UHGV virus genome: UHGV-1820336
Length of the DNA: 10,031 nt
Direction: 5' to 3' (one strand)
Source: a virus
Below are positions 77-8,723 of the stretch, piece after piece. Position numbers and translations under genes: made by a program. Numbering within the stretch: position 1 is the stretch's first letter; each line of letters opens with the position of its first letter. The notes under the pieces were generated by a model. That model saw nothing but the letters and a program-made list of their open reading frames with translations, was not told the origin of the DNA and made no database searches.

Positions 77-135
77 TTTATGTATTCATTTCTATTCACT
101 CTACACCATATTTTTCTGCGGTACAGGTGACGGTA

Positions 136-150
136 TTACCTTAAAGGTAT
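136..150. promoter_or_regulatory. Imperfect copy of the TTACC-N5-GGTAA palindrome (TTACC-TTAAA-GGTAT) upstream of the integrase gene
   Basis: Seen in sequence; 9/10 match to the palindrome found at the immunity region. Overlaps a second inverted repeat GGTAT-N6-ATACC (146-161). Function inferred only. Confidence 0.3.
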
Positions 151-192
151 ACTCTCATACCGTCATGAAAATGGTTTCTATACGGGTGAATT

Positions 193-3929: not shown

Positions 3930-4747
3930 ATGTACATATCCTGTTTGCGTGCCCACTCAGGGCGTTTAATGATTTCCACACCGCCCCATTCATCATTGAT
4001 ACGGCATTCGTGATAGGTATTCAGATCCCGGCGGAACAGAGCGTGCCCGGCATCGACATCCTGCGCATCCAGCTCGAACACGCGTACCGGATACCGACCA
4101 CAATCAATGCTTTCGCTCACGGCAAGAAAGAAAAAACCATGCGGCTGACCAGTAACCCTCATTGCGCCTTCGCGGTACATTGCGTCCTGCACGTGGTAGC
4201 GGAATTCCTCGATGTGGCGTGCAAAACGGTCCATATCTGCAACCTTTTTCACGTCGACGATCACGTTGTGCTCGTTCAGCCATTTGTCTGGACGAATTCG
4301 GCACAACTCCCCCGTCTCTTCATCGTTCCAGTACATTGATGCTTCGCAGTAACCAGGTGCTTCCAGCATCCAGCGTGCCGCCGGGTGAGCCATTGCGCTA
4401 TCACGCATCAGCTCCAGTTTCCGCCACTGCTCGGCATCAAGTACCGTAATCCCCATATCCGCCACATCACGAAGAAATTCCTCTTCGTCAGCTTTACCTT
4501 GTTTCGTCCGACGATCGAATTTCGGTGAAACAATGAAGCGTTTGTCGAACTCTCCAGGCTCCAGAAGCAGACAGTGCAATGCGGTTCCCATATCCAGTGC
4601 AGACTTTTTCTCTTCGTCTTCTGGTGCTGCCTGAACCCATTTAAGAAGCGCCGGATTCTTGGCAACCATGTCCAGTTGCGACTTACTCACGCCGTCACCG
4701 GCGTGGTAGTCTTCGTTGCTGATGTCGAAATAAATTCCCGGTTTCAT
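3926..4747 (-). CDS. PD-(D/E)XK family recombination exonuclease, RecE C-terminal-domain-like (DUF3799-type)
   Basis: 273 aa. N-terminus MKPGIYFDISNEDYHAGDGVSKSQLDMVAKNPALLKW...LDMGTALHCLLLEP is typical of RecE-like / exodeoxyribonuclease VIII-type phage nucleases. Sits immediately upstream of, and coupled to, the annealing protein. Family assignment from memory, not searched. Confidence 0.75.
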   Translation of the reverse strand: MKPGIYFDISNEDYHAGDGVSKSQLDMVAKNPALLKWVQAAPEDEEKKSALDMGTALHCLLLEPGEFDKRFIVSPKFDRRTKQGKADEEEFLRDVADMGITVLDAEQWRKLELMRDSAMAHPAARWMLEAPGYCEASMYWNDEETGELCRIRPDKWLNEHNVIVDVKKVADMDRFARHIEEFRYHVQDAMYREGAMRVTGQPHGFFFLAVSESIDCGRYPVRVFELDAQDVDAGHALFRRDLNTYHECRINDEWGGVEIIKRPEWARKQDMYI

Positions 4748-5043
4748 GCCGCGTCCCTCTGCCCATCAAGCTGATCAGCCAGATCCCAGCGGGCGATAAT
4801 TGCCATTGCCTCGCGCCGGTAGGCATCCATTAGTTCTTCGAACTCAGGGCTGTCTTTAGCGGCCTCCAGTACTTCCTGGCGAACGCCTTTAACTGTTACA
4901 ACGTCGAAAGTTGATGCCAGTTGATGAAGCCGGATACTCTCAATCAGTTCAACTTGTCGGTCATATAGCTGTTCTGACAGACGGTAGTCCTTGTCGAATG
5001 CCAGCATGATTTTTTGAAGATTTTTCTGCTGATTAACGTTCAT
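4744..5043 (-). CDS. Hypothetical protein (99 aa) upstream of the exonuclease
   Basis: ATG at 5043..5041 preceded by GGGAGGG SD. Stop overlaps the exonuclease start (ATGA). Acidic protein, no family recognised; position suggests a possible host-nuclease inhibitor but that is speculation. Confidence 0.55.
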   Translation of the reverse strand: MNVNQQKNLQKIMLAFDKDYRLSEQLYDRQVELIESIRLHQLASTFDVVTVKGVRQEVLEAAKDSPEFEELMDAYRREAMAIIARWDLADQLDGQRDAA

Positions 5044-5198: not shown

Positions 5199-5217
5199 AA
5201 CTTGTTACCTCGGTCTG

Positions 5218-5294
5218 TTACCGTTGAGGTAATAATTATGCGTATATGGTTTGATGTCAATAGATATGAGTTAAAAAAATTACCCGTTAGGTAA
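5218..5294. promoter_or_regulatory. OL-like region: two perfect operator palindromes flanking a candidate leftward promoter
   Basis: TTACC-GTTGA-GGTAA at 5218-5232 and TTACC-CGTTA-GGTAA at 5280-5294, centres 62 bp apart. Between them on the - strand is a perfect -35 TTGACA (5260..5255) and an AT-rich -10 region (around 5232-5240; hexamer assignment ambiguous). Confidence 0.6.
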
Positions 5295-5304
5295 TCGAAT
5301 AGGC

Positions 5305-5331
5305 AATAAAAAAGCCGCCATAAGGCGGCTT
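5305..5331 (-). terminator. Rho-independent terminator of the repressor gene
   Basis: Stem AAGCCGCC (5312-5319), loop ATAA, stem GGCGGCTT (5324-5331). On the - strand the hairpin is followed by TTTTTTATT. About 20 nt downstream of the repressor stop. Confidence 0.6.
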
Positions 5332-5351
5332 ACTTACTGAAAAATATGGTT

Positions 5352-5936
5352 TTATTGTTTGTTTTTTTCGTTCTGGTTGATGACAAATTCAATGTAACTT
5401 TCGATCTTTGCTTTCTCGGTTTCGGGTAACAATGCGTAGCGCGAGCGATCATAGTTGATGGTCGCAGGGTCGTGCGGGTGAATCAGTAATTCATAGCCGT
5501 GACGCCCGAATGCGGATGCAACATTCTCCAGGGTGGAAATGGAAACGCTGACCTCATTGTTTAACAGGCGGCTGATTGTCACCTGGGCTACGCCGGATGC
5601 GCGGTGAAGTTTTCCCTGTGTTGAAAGGTCGCGGCTTTCGCTCATCCAGCGTTCCAGGTTGTGAGCCGCCAGCTGGCCAATGTCGCTTGGGCCGACAGGC
5701 TGAAAACCTTCCTGAGAAAGCGAGCGATCGATATCAAGCCAGTTACGGGGTTTATTGGCGGCAGCTTCAATTTTTCGTGCAACCTGGTCGCCGATAACCT
5801 TCTTGCCAAGAGCCCAGCGGTTTACCAGATTTGCCTGAGTTCCAAGTTTTTCAGCCATCCGCGTCTGAACACCATTGAATTCACGGTCGATCAAGTCGTT
5901 GAGATTTTGCCTGCGGACGTCCTGGATACTTTTCAT
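5352..5936 (-). CDS. Phage repressor (CI-like function) with two predicted helix-turn-helix regions and no LexA/S24 peptidase domain
   Basis: 194 aa. N-terminal segment QTRMAEKLGTQANLVNRWALGKKVIGDQVARKIEAAANKPRNWLD and a second segment RASGVAQVTISRLLNNEVSVSISTLENVASAFG both resemble XRE/CI-type HTH motifs. Divergent from a Cro-like gene with operator palindromes in between. No Ala-Gly / Ser-Lys peptidase motifs recognised. Confidence 0.8.
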   Translation of the reverse strand: MKSIQDVRRQNLNDLIDREFNGVQTRMAEKLGTQANLVNRWALGKKVIGDQVARKIEAAANKPRNWLDIDRSLSQEGFQPVGPSDIGQLAAHNLERWMSESRDLSTQGKLHRASGVAQVTISRLLNNEVSVSISTLENVASAFGRHGYELLIHPHDPATINYDRSRYALLPETEKAKIESYIEFVINQNEKNKQ

Positions 5937-5991
5937 TTTCTGGAAAATCGCCTCATATATGAATCAGTAGATGATTCAATTTAAAGCAATA

Positions 5992-6054
5992 TTACCCAAC
6001 AGGTAAATGCACCCCACAGGTAACTATCCTTGATTTTTGTTACCTTATGGGTGA
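5992..6054. promoter_or_regulatory. OR-like region: three operator sites plus candidate PR
   Basis: Perfect TTACC-CAACA-GGTAA at 5992-6006. Imperfect GCACC-CCACA-GGTAA at 6009-6023 and TTACC-TTATG-GGTGA at 6040-6054. Centre spacings 17 and 31 bp. Candidate rightward promoter TTGTTA (6037-6042) -17- TATTAT (6060-6065), with an alternative -35 TTGATT at 6030-6035; the third site overlaps it. Confidence 0.6.
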
Positions 6055-6090
6055 ATATTTATTATCTGAAATAAATATCAGGCAATAGCT

Positions 6091-6321
6091 ATGAGCGATA
6101 ACGGACATTTCGATTTCAAAAAGCACTGGCTTGCACTTACTCCGGATGAGCGTGAAGCCTTCGCACAGGAAGCCGGAACGACGAGTCACTATATCCAGAC
6201 TCACTTAACAGGTAAGCGCAAAATGCCAGGTAAGGTATTGATGAATGGGCTTTTTAAAGCCTGTAAAACAAGACAATGGCTGCGCTCAAAAGCAGAATTG
6301 GCATACTTCTTCTACTCATGA
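6091..6321 (+). CDS. Cro-like small DNA-binding protein (YdaS/DUF1019-like HTH)
   Basis: 76 aa. Divergent from the repressor gene across the operator region. Segment EAFAQEAGTTSHYIQTHLTGKRKMPGKVL resembles Cro/YdaS-type HTH proteins. Weak SD. Confidence 0.65.
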   Translation: MSDNGHFDFKKHWLALTPDEREAFAQEAGTTSHYIQTHLTGKRKMPGKVLMNGLFKACKTRQWLRSKAELAYFFYS

Positions 6322-6342
6322 TATCCAGCCACAACCCTCTGT

Positions 6343-6366
6343 AGACCGCCATCCGGCGGTCTTTTC
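6343..6366 (+). terminator. Rho-independent terminator after the Cro-like gene (tR1-like position)
   Basis: Stem AGACCGCC (6343-6350), loop ATCC, stem GGCGGTCT (6355-6362), followed by TTTTCAT. Confidence 0.6.
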
Positions 6367-6376
6367 ATATCTATTC

Positions 6377-6437
6377 GTACCTCAAAGGTAATAAAAAACC
6401 AAATCTGGTTGATCTTTTTTTTGTGTCAGCACAAAAT
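6377..6437 (+). promoter_or_regulatory. Operator-like site plus candidate promoter for the zinc-ribbon / O / P genes
   Basis: GTACC-TCAAA-GGTAA at 6377-6391 (9/10). Then 17 bp to a candidate -35 TTGATC (6409-6414), 17-nt spacer, candidate -10 CAAAAT (6432-6437). Promoter call is weak. Confidence 0.35.
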
Positions 6438-6471
6438 GACCGTAATCCCAATACTAATAACAGGGCTTACC

Positions 6472-6672
6472 ATGGAAATCATTACACGTATTGATGCCGC
6501 AAAGCGCGGACTTAAACGCTACTACACCGGAAAAACATGTAAGCACGGACATGACAGTGAACGCTGGGTTTACAACGGACACTGTGTTGAGTGCACCATG
6601 GAATCAAACCGTCGTATCAGGGCAGAGATTAAGCAGATCATGATTAATTCCTCCCCACAACATTCAAGCTGA
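6472..6672 (+). CDS. Small putative zinc-binding protein (66 aa)
   Basis: MEIITRIDAAKRGLKRYYTGKTCKHGHDSERWVYNGHCVEC...: Cys/His cluster C-x-H-x-H-x10-H-C-x2-C. Occupies the position cII has in lambda but shows no similarity to cII. An in-frame ATG at 6436 is an alternative start. No clear SD. Confidence 0.5.
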   Translation: MEIITRIDAAKRGLKRYYTGKTCKHGHDSERWVYNGHCVECTMESNRRIRAEIKQIMINSSPQHSS

Positions 6673-6687
6673 TAGCGGAGATTAATC

Positions 6688-7479
6688 ATGAGCAGACATG
6701 CAACAGATTGGGCCTGGGAGACAGATCCAGGTAGCTCATCATTAAAGCTCATACTGCTCTCGATGGCTGACAGAGCCGATGAATATAACCTCTGCTACCC
6801 CAGCATAGAACGCCTCGTTAAAGACACTTGCCTGAATAAAAAAACCGTGCAGGCCGGGCTTATATCGCTCATGAAAATGGGGCTTATTTCAGATACCGGA
6901 GAGAGAAAGGGAGCGACAAAAAGAGTGCGGGTTTTCTCTCTTAATATAACCAAAAACGGGAACATTAAAGGCAACCGGGAGGGGGGCAATGAACCCGAAA
7001 ACGGGAATATACCCGAAAACGGGAATATACCCAAAAACGGGATGTTGAATGATCCCAAAAACGGGATCCAGAACCAGTCATATAACCAGTCATTTAACCA
7101 AGAGAGGGAGAGCAGGACAAAAAGCGGGGATTCTGTGCCTCATGACCCCGGAGCAAACAACGCCGTGATGAATAACTTTGTTCCTCCTGGTGGGCCAGGG
7201 CAATTAGGCAAATTTGTCATGCATGAACAATGGCAGCCATCAGATGACTTTCTTCGGAAAAGCTCATTGCAGGGGATCTACCTGGACAGTCTGCCAACGG
7301 CACAGGAACTTGCAGAGTTCAGAATTTACTGGATGGCTGAGGGTAAGGCATACCATCAGGCACAGTGGGAGCAGAAGCTGGCAAGGCGGCTGCAGATTAG
7401 CAGACAGAAGCAATCAACATTACCTGATAACAACGTTCCGCACTGGAACAGCCCTGAAGCATGGGAGGATTTCTTGTGA
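6688..7479 (+). CDS. Replication initiator, lambda O-like (N-terminal HTH DNA-binding domain; origin iterons embedded in the linker region)
   Basis: 263 aa. N-terminus WAWETDPGSSSLKLILLSMADRADEYNLCYPSIERLVKDTCLNKKTVQAGLISLMKMGLI is typical of phage replication-initiator HTH domains. Central low-complexity KNG/ENG repeat is encoded by the iterons. SD GGAG 7 nt upstream. The next gene is P-like. Confidence 0.8.
   Translation: MSRHATDWAWETDPGSSSLKLILLSMADRADEYNLCYPSIERLVKDTCLNKKTVQAGLISLMKMGLISDTGERKGATKRVRVFSLNITKNGNIKGNREGGNEPENGNIPENGNIPKNGMLNDPKNGIQNQSYNQSFNQERESRTKSGDSVPHDPGANNAVMNNFVPPGGPGQLGKFVMHEQWQPSDDFLRKSSLQGIYLDSLPTAQELAEFRIYWMAEGKAYHQAQWEQKLARRLQISRQKQSTLPDNNVPHWNSPEAWEDFL
6950..7068. 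repeat. Candidate replication origin: iterons CC(C)RAAAACGGGA, palindromic core CCCG-AAAAC-GGG
   Basis: Copies start at 6950, 6994, 7012, 7030 and 7054. 6994-7011 and 7012-7029 are an exact 18-bp tandem duplicate, CCCGAAAACGGGAATATA. Followed by a 12-bp direct repeat AACCAGTCAT(A/T)T at 7072-7095. Resembles the lambda ori iteron design (recalled as TCCCTCAAAACGAGGGA) located inside the O gene. Confidence 0.7.
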
Positions 7480-8261
7480 ACAACGTTTTTACCGCGATAC
7501 AAAACCGTGACGGAGAAGCCCTTTCTCGCATGTCAGGTTATGAGCATCAGTACGTCAACAATGACAATGTGGTGAACATGTCAGCAGAGAGGCTTGTTGA
7601 TGCCCTTTTTAAACAGCTGAAACAACTGTTTCCGGCGGCAGTGGTAACCAACCTGAAGACGCCAGAGCAGGAAGTTGCTGCAAAACAGCAGTGGATTGCT
7701 GCGTTTGCCGAAGGGGGGATCCGAACCCGTGAACAGGTTTCTGCTGGTATGCGCCACGCCCGCGCCAGTGAATCTCCGTTCTGGCCGTCTCCAGGGCAAT
7801 TTATCAAGTGGTGCAAAGACAGCAAGATGGTTCTTGGCGTCACCATTGACGATGTGATGGCGGAGTTTCACCGGTACAGCAAGGAAAAAAGTTTATATCC
7901 TGGTGGTCCCGAAAGATTCCCGTGGCGACATCCGGTTATGTACTGGGTCGTATGTGATACCCGCCGTGCAATGTATCAGCGCCAGCTTAGCGAGATTGAG
8001 GTTGAGAAACACGCACGCAGGCTGCTCGATGATTGGGCGAAAAAGGTGGCTTCCGGACAGCAGATACCCGATCCGGTGATCAGCATACAGGCAAAGCCAG
8101 AGCCCATGAGTACGCCTCCGGACACAGGGAGAGACGTTTACCATCCACCAGGGCGAAGTTTCGGGTGCATGCCTAACGCCGCCACCCTTGGGGGAATAAC
8201 ACCGGCGCAGTGGCTGATGGAGGAATACAGGCGGGGAAAGGCGGCAGGATTTATCAAGTAA
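7476..8261 (+). CDS. Replication protein P-like helicase loader
   Basis: AAFAEGGIRTREQVSAGMRHARASESPFWPSPGQFIKWCK aligns with lambda P as recalled from memory (LAFRENGITTMEQVNAGMRVARRQNRPFLPSPGQFVAWCR). Start taken as GTG 7476 (SD GGAGGA 7464-7469, overlapping the O-like stop in GTGA). The in-frame ATG at 7461 is an alternative. Confidence 0.85.
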   Translation: MNNVFTAIQNRDGEALSRMSGYEHQYVNNDNVVNMSAERLVDALFKQLKQLFPAAVVTNLKTPEQEVAAKQQWIAAFAEGGIRTREQVSAGMRHARASESPFWPSPGQFIKWCKDSKMVLGVTIDDVMAEFHRYSKEKSLYPGGPERFPWRHPVMYWVVCDTRRAMYQRQLSEIEVEKHARRLLDDWAKKVASGQQIPDPVISIQAKPEPMSTPPDTGRDVYHPPGRSFGCMPNAATLGGITPAQWLMEEYRRGKAAGFIK

Positions 8262-8264
8262 TAC

Positions 8265-8286
8265 CAGCGCGATAGCGCATTTTTTT
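8265..8286 (+). terminator. Weak terminator-like element after the P-like gene
   Basis: Short GC stem GCGC (8267-8270) / GCGC (8275-8278) with loop GATA, followed by a 7-T run (8280-8286). Stem is only 4 bp, so low confidence. Confidence 0.3.
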
Positions 8287-8298
8287 ACGCCTCGACAA

Positions 8299-8375
8299 TT
8301 ACCTGTTAGGTAATAAAATATTCTAAAATCTATTGATTTCGTGTCTTATGTGGTTTTTAATTACCTCAGAGGTAA
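8299..8375 (+). promoter_or_regulatory. Second operator pair flanking a candidate rightward promoter upstream of the DUF1064-like gene
   Basis: Perfect TTACC-TGTTA-GGTAA at 8299-8313 and TTACC-TCAGA-GGTAA at 8361-8375, centres 62 bp apart (same as the OL pair). Between them -35 TTGATT (8333-8338), 17-nt spacer, -10 TTTAAT (8356-8361). The downstream site overlaps the SD (GAGG 8369-8372) of the ATG at 8379. Confidence 0.6.
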
Positions 8376-8378
8376 ATC

Positions 8379-8723
8379 ATGAGAAAACAGATACAGGCTC
8401 TTGGTCGACTCAAAACAGGTCAGATGAACAAAACAGAATCTGCGTATTGCCAGCACCTTGAGCTGCGTAAACGTGCAGGAGAAATCGTCTGGTATCGATT
8501 TGAGGGTATCAAGCTGCGGTTAGCTGACAACACGTTCTATACGCCCGATTTTGCTGTGATGCTCGCCACCGGCGAGATGGAACTGCACGAAGTGAAAGGT
8601 TTCTGGACCGACGACGCCAGGGTGAAAACCAAAGTCGCCGCAGATCAGTATCCGTTCCGAATCATCGGGGTAACGGTTAAACCAAAGAAAGCAGGTGGTG
8701 GCTGGATCATCGAAGAGTTCTGA
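8379..8723 (+). CDS. DUF1064-like phage protein with a PD-(D/E)XK-type motif
   Basis: 114 aa. Pattern E-x2-Y-x3-LE...G-E-I...YTPDF-x-V...ELHEVKG...K-x-K...YPF matches, from memory, the conserved layout of DUF1064 phage proteins (D...E-x-K nuclease-like core). Not verified by search. Confidence 0.7.
   Translation: MRKQIQALGRLKTGQMNKTESAYCQHLELRKRAGEIVWYRFEGIKLRLADNTFYTPDFAVMLATGEMELHEVKGFWTDDARVKTKVAADQYPFRIIGVTVKPKKAGGGWIIEEF

Follow-up and report, generated by a model that had tools for sequence, protein, structure and literature searches.

The DNA analysed here, a 10,031-nucleotide (nt) stretch of the virus genome UHGV-1820336 that we call the window, carries several copies of the palindrome TTACC-N5-GGTAA, and the subject of this study is the placement of these copies around predicted promoters and the protein that may read them. 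The window is a phiV10/epsilon15-like prophage of the genus Uetakevirus, the epsilon15-like podoviruses; between positions 5000 and 8500 it is 97–99% identical to phiV10, PAS61, phiv142-3, and BP9, with the genes in the same order. Matching prophages are present in 564 of 5426 complete Escherichia coli genomes, and the closest match, at 99.7%, is in strain MS 198-1, where the prophage lies at the 3′ end of guaA. Perfect copies of the palindrome start at 5218, 5280, 5992, 8299, and 8361, against a chance expectation of 0.01 for the window, and none of 200 shuffles contained five. Copies with one mismatch start at 136, 6040, and 6377, and one with two mismatches at 6009. All nine of these sites are intergenic relative to the annotated genes, so that the five perfect and four imperfect intergenic copies listed by the first-pass annotation, a reading of the sequence without database searches, are borne out by our scans with a recomputed expectation. 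Two-mismatch matches also occur within coding sequences, at 4695, 6201, and 9701; because about three matches with two or fewer mismatches are expected, these fit chance.

The two close pairs of perfect copies, 5218/5280 and 8299/8361, each have a start-to-start distance of exactly 62 base pairs (bp) and each bracket a predicted promoter. The first pair surrounds a leftward early promoter resembling the lambda PL promoter (5232–5260, minus strand; 10 of 12 consensus matches in the promoter scan). Read along the minus strand, the distal site (5294–5280, with a T-tract after it) is followed at 19 nt by the −35 hexamer TTGACA (5260–5255), after a further 17 nt by the −10 hexamer AATTAT (5237–5232), and then by the proximal site (5232–5218), which starts on the last T of the −10 hexamer and spans the expected transcription start. 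The PL segment CTATTGAC is conserved in all relatives compared. The second pair repeats this layout in mirror image on the plus strand, upstream of a gene for a DUF1064 resolvase-like protein: distal site 8299–8313, 19 nt, TTGATT (8333–8338), 17 nt, TTTAAT (8356–8361), proximal site 8361–8375, and start codon at 8379. As at PL, the −10 hexamer and the proximal site overlap by one base, the T that ends the former and begins the latter. The identical spacing and mirrored layout of the two pairs had been proposed in the first-pass annotation and are correct to the base. The DUF1064-gene promoter (8333–8361) is read from sequence and conservation; the consensus scan missed it because its −10 hexamer has T at the second position. 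CTATTGA and the fixed spacing at this promoter are conserved in seven genomes and in 96 unique viral-contig variants. The scan instead called a promoter over the 8299 site (TCGACA, 16 nt, TAAAAT), which we set aside as the conserved promoter, since relatives keep TTGATT at 8333 but not the −35 of this alternative.

The proximal site of the DUF1064-gene promoter includes the GAGG ribosome-binding site of the gene starting at 8379, and on the minus strand the ribosome-binding site of the first PL gene, GAGGTAA, lies 13 nt past 5218 (window 5199–5232). Because the proximal sites contain or directly abut ribosome-binding sites, transcripts from both promoters would have very short leaders. Epsilon15 (32479–32494) and SPC32H (33528–33542) have a third PL-side site that immediately precedes the first PL gene, 76 bp downstream of the proximal site; at this position, the phiV10 lineage keeps only a GAGGTAA half-site. 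The small proteins encoded nearest to PL match only PHROGs of unknown function.

Between these two pairs lie the regulatory genes. An intrinsic terminator (5312–5331, minus strand), called by the terminator scan and also annotated in the phiV10 record, divides PL from the repressor gene that it terminates, rep (5352–5936, minus strand), which encodes a protein of 194 residues. The region between rep and the divergent gene for a Cro-like protein, which we refer to as OR, has three sites: a perfect distal copy (5992–6006), a middle copy (6009–6023) that reads GCACC-N5-GGTAA and whose degenerate left half is stable within the phiV10-like lineage, and a proximal copy (6040–6054) that reads TTACC-N5-GGTGA. 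The proximal copy lies inside the spacer of the predicted rightward promoter of the Cro-like gene (6030–6058, plus strand; TTGATT at 6030–6035, 17 nt, GAATAT), the −35 of which is conserved in all relatives; the scan also offers an alternative, TTGTTA at 6037, 17 nt, and TATTAT ending at 6065. The Cro-like gene (6091–6321, plus strand) encodes a small helix-turn-helix (HTH) protein that matches phrog_35, "transcriptional repressor" (E = 5.6e-13), and is followed by an intrinsic terminator found by the scan (6343–6362, plus strand), with a hairpin kept at this place in relatives.

Beyond this terminator, a third arrangement can be read as a weaker copy of the same cassette that would drive the replication genes. 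Its degenerate distal site (6377–6391, GTACC-N5-GGTAA), whose position is kept with one or two mismatches in all relatives, is followed by 17 nt and by TTGATC (6409–6414), as the first-pass annotation had described, then by another 17 nt and CAAAAT. The resulting candidate promoter (6409–6437, plus strand), which would serve the zinc-ribbon-like and O/P replication genes, is below the threshold of the consensus scan. Alignment reveals a remnant of a proximal site (6437–6451) that starts on the last T of the −10 hexamer and retains only the half-site TGACC; its counterpart in phage BUCT554 is TTACC-N5-AGTAA. The segment GGTTGATCTTTTTT (6407–6420) is invariant in all seven sequences compared although its flanks differ.

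To examine how general these arrangements are, we scanned six complete Uetakevirus genomes, those of phiV10, epsilon15, SPC32H, the Enterobacter phages Tyrion and BUCT554, and the Klebsiella phage BUCT711, which represent hosts of the genera Escherichia, Salmonella, Enterobacter, and Klebsiella and encode repressors 42–100% identical to that of the window. Each genome of about 39 kb has 8–11 perfect sites, against about 0.03–0.04 expected, and in most or all six the palindromes recur at ten shared types of location: the terminase start (two sites 18–20 bp apart), the portal operon, the divergent region between the antirepressor gene ant and the tail-fibre gene, the region downstream of ant, the conversion/lysis divergent region, the region upstream of the integrase gene int, the PL pair, the three sites between rep and the Cro-like gene, the region after the Cro-like terminator, and the pair before the DUF1064 or RuvC-like gene. 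The pairs that bracket promoters are spaced by 62 bp in 11 of 12 cases and by 63 bp in the remaining one. In gap-free alignments, conservation covers the half-sites, the A/T tract that follows the distal site, the −35 segment CTATTGA, and the junction of −10 and operator, and the central five bases and the promoter spacers drift. The same footprint is seen in the 62-bp pairs of at least 120 viral-contig stretches, mostly from contigs of about 40 kb, which reduce to 96 unique oriented variants. As an unbiased check, we compared 40 unique rep-cro intergenic regions chosen without reference to the palindromes, with Rep identities of 41–100%: 39 have three sites at fixed positions and one has two, the half-sites are kept, and the central N5 varies freely. 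The weakening of the second and third sites is specific to each lineage and stable within it.

The occurrence of one motif in phages of four enterobacterial genera could also be explained by a conserved host protein, or the palindrome could belong to a host repeat family in AT-rich intergenic DNA. We consider this highly improbable. A 165-kb sample of host chromosome contained no perfect copy, compared with 8–11 in each 39-kb phage genome, and nine one-mismatch matches against about 4.5 expected by base composition; a palindrome common in the host is the outcome that the first-pass annotation had set against its own proposal. In addition, the sites are tied to the geometry of phage promoters, and a Pseudomonas phage has a related half-site beside its homologous repressor.

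The repressor itself also bears on what the palindromes are for. A phmmer search against the PDB aligned residues 1–190 of the window protein to residues 2–197 of 5D50_A (E = 4e-42), the Rep protein of phage SPC32H, for which 5D4Z is also available. By this homology, DNA binding is assigned to an N-terminal HTH domain, dimerisation to a middle domain with an HTH_3-like fold, and tetramerisation together with binding of the antirepressor Ant to the C-terminal domain, the roles being those given in the description of SPC32H Rep in PMC9986798. Identity to SPC32H Rep is about 42% over the whole protein, rising to 54% within the DNA-binding domain and falling to 34% within the dimerisation domain. 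Across the six phages, all three parts contribute to the 66 invariant columns; conservation is highest in the N-terminal domain, which contains an invariant NLVNRW segment, probably the recognition helix. Pfam matches of the repressor are to HTH families only, with no Peptidase_S24 domain of the RecA/LexA self-cleavage type. SPC32H Rep is described as a tetramer that binds palindromic sites, with each DNA-binding pair contributed by different dimers, and that is disassembled by an Ant tetramer (PMC9638917; PMC9986798). In the near-identical phage ZX5, whose repressor is identical to that of the window, overexpression of the repressor lowered transcription of the phage holin gene, and the authors take the repressor to block lytic-gene transcription (PMC9782041). 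The same 2022 paper reports that the repressor influences the lysis-lysogeny balance and defines no operator (PMC9782041).

Annotation of a relative points the same way. The epsilon15 record (AY150271.2) lists seven "protein_bind: repressor" sites, all of which read ATTACC-N5-GGTAAT. One lies ahead of the terminase genes, one ahead of the portal operon, and one between gp19 and the tailspike gene; PL has three, and the seventh follows the replication genes. These are homologous in position to sites in phiV10 and in the window. Missing from the record are the three OR sites, the proximal member of the post-replication pair, and the sites at the lysis genes and int, all of which our scan found, and the phiV10 record, unlike that of epsilon15, has no operator features at all. 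A text search of the literature for the motif strings returned unrelated primer matches only.

Taken together, these observations suggested to us that TTACC-N5-GGTAA is very probably the operator of the prophage's own lysogeny repressor, a member of the SPC32H/epsilon15 Rep family, and that it brackets several promoters. The central idea of the first-pass annotation, that one DNA-binding protein acts at several promoters through a shared palindrome, gains support from the conservation across six genomes, the rep-cro footprint, the epsilon15 annotation, and the homology to SPC32H Rep. That annotation had left the binding protein open between the repressor, the Cro-like protein, or both; the homology and the consideration that silencing of PL and the other promoters requires a protein produced in the lysogen narrow the choice towards Rep, and the Cro-like protein may share the OR sites. 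Because PL is near consensus and must be silent in the lysogen, and because the Cro-like gene sits behind a promoter covered by an operator, the protein that silences PL would have to be Rep.

Several points weigh against the assignment to Rep and have to be set beside it. The repressor-site features of the epsilon15 record may themselves be predictions, and the promoters are predictions from consensus and conservation. Co-variation of repressor and operator could not be used to assign the binding protein, because all four repressor types, 42–100% identical, keep the same half-sites. The Cro-like protein is highly conserved as well; its segment AGTTSHYIQ.HLT, the putative recognition helix, is invariant across the six phages, and a homologue accompanies TTACC-type operators in a Pseudomonas phage. 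The Cro-like protein could accordingly be the main reader of the palindrome, or share the sites with Rep as lambda Cro shares the operators of CI. The invariance of its helix parallels that of the motif, its HTH fold falls in a "transcriptional repressor" PHROG, and three graded OR sites are the classic arrangement of a two-protein switch. Even so, the epsilon15 record assigns the sites to the repressor, and PMC9638917 reports SPC32H Rep on palindromic sites. Moreover, because its own promoter carries an operator in the spacer, the Cro-like protein cannot be the lysogenic silencer. We therefore regard a leading or shared role of this protein as possible and somewhat doubtful. A further reservation concerns how Rep would act, as 62 bp is short for a protein-held loop and the looping considered below is an inference.

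With Rep as the reader, a pair of its N-terminal HTH domains would contact each palindrome. Because a Rep tetramer has two such pairs, as the SPC32H literature implies, one tetramer could hold two operators, and because 62 bp corresponds to about six helical turns, paired operators would lie on one face of the DNA. With Rep on the two operators of a pair, RNA polymerase would be blocked and the promoter probably clamped in a small loop. At OR, the repressor would meet the three graded sites, one of them within the spacer of the rightward promoter. We tentatively extend this to the idea, which we hold to be possible and less likely than the operator assignment, that the bracketed-promoter cassette is a module that has been duplicated, each copy allowing one Rep tetramer to clamp its promoter within a loop that is very small and in phase. 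If so, one repressor would directly control the whole 39-kb genome, including early, replication, late, lysis, and conversion genes, without recourse to an antitermination cascade, and timing after release by Ant would follow from promoter strength and from a second promoter motif described below.

Because the third cassette follows the Cro-like terminator and precedes the replication genes, each early unit would end in a terminator, with a Rep-controlled promoter of its own to restart transcription. The first-pass annotation had placed terminators after both the Cro-like and the P-like genes. The former (6343–6362) is recovered by the scan; the latter, a weak 4-bp GC stem followed by T7, is not called, although it appears as a putative terminator in the phiV10 record. 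Neither phiV10 nor the prophage has an annotated N- or Q-like product, which makes the suggestion of the first-pass annotation that antitermination is dispensed with plausible; a very divergent antiterminator may still be present. From the terminator-plus-cassette arrangement and the lack of an annotated N or Q, we infer that the early units are transcribed from their own promoters rather than by antitermination.

A more conservative alternative is that Rep controls only PL and PR, as in lambda, that the 6377 and 8299/8361 sites are relics or roadblocks, and that the downstream genes are reached by read-through or antitermination. The weakness of the terminator after the P-like gene, with its short stem, would favour read-through, and the promoter at 6409 is a poor one with degenerate operators. 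Set against this, the 8299/8361 cassette is conserved as well as PL in seven genomes and dozens of variants, GGTTGATCTTTTTT is invariant amid differing sequence, and neither N nor Q is annotated. We consider control limited to these two promoters improbable, and independent Rep-controlled units the better account of the arrangement.

The predicted regulon is not confined to the region considered by the first-pass annotation. Outside the window, the same operator would guard the terminase, portal, tail-fibre, lysis/conversion, and antirepressor regions. The last of these connects the repressor to its likely release. The Ant homologue is a protein of 85 residues encoded next to the tail-fibre gene (SPC32H Ant has 86, and the two are ∼85% identical by our own count). 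Just upstream of the ant start, a perfect LexA box is present in phiV10, epsilon15, SPC32H, Tyrion, BUCT554, and the MS 198-1 prophage, and in the same six a Rep operator lies about 55 bp away; BUCT711 has only a degenerate box. The box of MS 198-1 is CTGTATATTTATACAG, directly upstream of ant (locus 7735–8190), and the corresponding phiV10 locus is 20798–20998. These boxes suggest that ant is under LexA control; work on SPC32H reportedly showed such control. DNA damage would lift LexA from ant, and Ant would then strip Rep from all operators at once. Binding by a Rep tetramer and release by Ant are expected for this phage by analogy with SPC32H. The ZX5 paper names a Bro-N protein as the antirepressor (PMC9782041). 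We did not adopt that protein as the relevant one, since the homologue of the structurally characterised Ant is the 85-residue protein with the LexA box.

The system as such is already annotated in epsilon15 and characterised in SPC32H, and the window holds its phiV10-lineage copy. What may go beyond existing annotation are the strict 62-bp operator-promoter-operator cassette, the sites omitted from the epsilon15 record, and the second promoter motif. PhiV10 serves as a reporter phage for O157 detection, and phiV10-like prophages occur in about one in ten complete E. coli genomes. Transfer of the epsilon15/SPC32H operator map to these prophages yields a wiring diagram of promoters predicted to be held by Rep and of a predicted SOS entry point. 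The 62-bp cassette also offers a convenient system in which to study how two sites are engaged by a tetrameric repressor whose DNA-binding domains are swapped.

Among the sites of the window, that at 136–150 (TTACCTTAAAGGTAT) is the least clear. It lies 43 nt upstream of the int start codon and keeps the same GGTAT imperfection in all six relatives. The surroundings (window 100–175) form a near-invariant block in which (A/C)GGTAT occurs three times, together with an inverted repeat, GACGGTAT...ATACCGTC; such GGTAT motifs are annotated as integrase sites in the epsilon15 record, and the block and inverted repeat are probably integrase arm-type sites of attP. The first-pass annotation counted this site among its palindromes, and the one-mismatch match holds, with an ambiguous role as an operator. 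In view of the overlap with the GGTAT repeats, we downgraded it from a clear operator to what is possibly a weak operator or a by-product of the integrase arm-type sites.

The remaining genes of the region are arranged around these elements. The int gene (193–1443) is followed by the leftward recombination and regulator operon; PerC-like and AlpA-like proteins are encoded in the PL operon. To the right of the Cro-like terminator are a small zinc-ribbon-like gene (6472–6672), a DnaT-like replication gene (6688–7479), a lambda-P-like gene (7461–8261), and the DUF1064 resolvase-like gene (8379–8723). In the MS 198-1 prophage, a tRNA-Arg gene lies between the terminase and portal genes, several genes are truncated, and a copy of IS200C adjoins the right end (loci 31040–31116 and 12993–13451).

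We also noticed a second promoter-associated motif, CATAT(G/A)TGGTT (CATATGTGGTT), which at two places forms a palindrome, AACCA-N4-TGGTT. PhiV10 has eight matches where 1.27 are expected; seven fall in promoter regions and the eighth within the oac gene. The promoter regions concerned are those of the portal, tail-fibre, and lysis/oac genes, the third cassette, and the DUF1064 promoter (window 8345–8355 and 6397–6410; phiV10 3308, 20921, 24736/24739, 33132/33135, and 35116). A longer form, ATRTGGTT-N5-GGTAATA, is found only at the portal and tail-fibre promoters. A second regulator, possibly one that acts late, may bind at this motif. At the terminase start of phiV10, the annotated start of terS (41–715) at position 41 is probably too early. 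A start context conserved in five phages, ATGCC(T/A/C)GC..., occurs at phiV10 124, after two Rep operators and an extended −10-like element, TGnTAnTAT, and the second terminase operator overlaps the ribosome-binding site of this start.

The closest known system is the Rep/Ant switch of SPC32H (5D50, 5D4Z), described by Kim & Ryu in 2013 and Kim et al. in 2016 and known here through PMC7380047 and PMC9986798. The two share a repressor homologous over its full length, encoded at the same genome position, and the same operator core at homologous places, including the 62-bp pairs. They differ in that the middle and proximal OR sites are degenerate in a different way and in that phiV10-type phages have an extra recognisable site after the cro terminator.

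Comparison with lambda CI/Cro reveals a similar outline, with a divergent repressor and cro separated by three graded operators and a leftward early promoter under the same repressor. In contrast to lambda, operators are also found at internal early and late units, and the 62-bp pairs bracket single promoters, whereas in lambda a 2.4-kb loop links tandem triplets. A RecA-dependent cleavage domain is absent from the window's repressor, the inactivation of which is expected to proceed via the antirepressor. With no S24 domain and no annotated N or Q, the window does not qualify as a lambda-type CI/Cro/N/Q circuit. Phage P1 C1 operators and the gp71 stoperators of mycobacteriophage L5 are likewise numerous and scattered, late regions included, and P1 also uses antirepressors; the P1 and L5 sites are asymmetric and mostly single. 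Here, as in P1 and L5, control would be genome-wide under one repressor, but the sites are symmetric palindromes in a fixed promoter-bracketing cassette. LacI, GalR, and Rco of pLS20 are tetrameric looping repressors that read DNA with two heads and have operators flanking the promoter. The C-terminal tetramerisation domain of Rep is described as having the same TetDloop fold as that of Rco (PMC9986798). Relative to LacI, GalR, and Rco, the in-phase distance is much shorter and strictly 62 bp, and looping by Rep is our proposal.

A final comparison concerns the DNA-reading module. In the Pseudomonas phage PseuP_224, the N-terminal HTH domain of cI is homologous to the DNA-binding domain of Rep and is fused to an S24 peptidase of the type capable of LexA-like self-cleavage. 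The genome is lambda-like, with a Q antiterminator gene, and carries TTACC-N4-GGTAA at OR and OL (5900–5995; 6790–6850), with a spacer of N4 rather than N5. An unannotated leftward open reading frame upstream of this cI resembles the Cro-like gene by eye. As PseuP_224 joins a Rep-like HTH to an S24 peptidase, the same DNA-reading module therefore appears there with a different inactivation mechanism.

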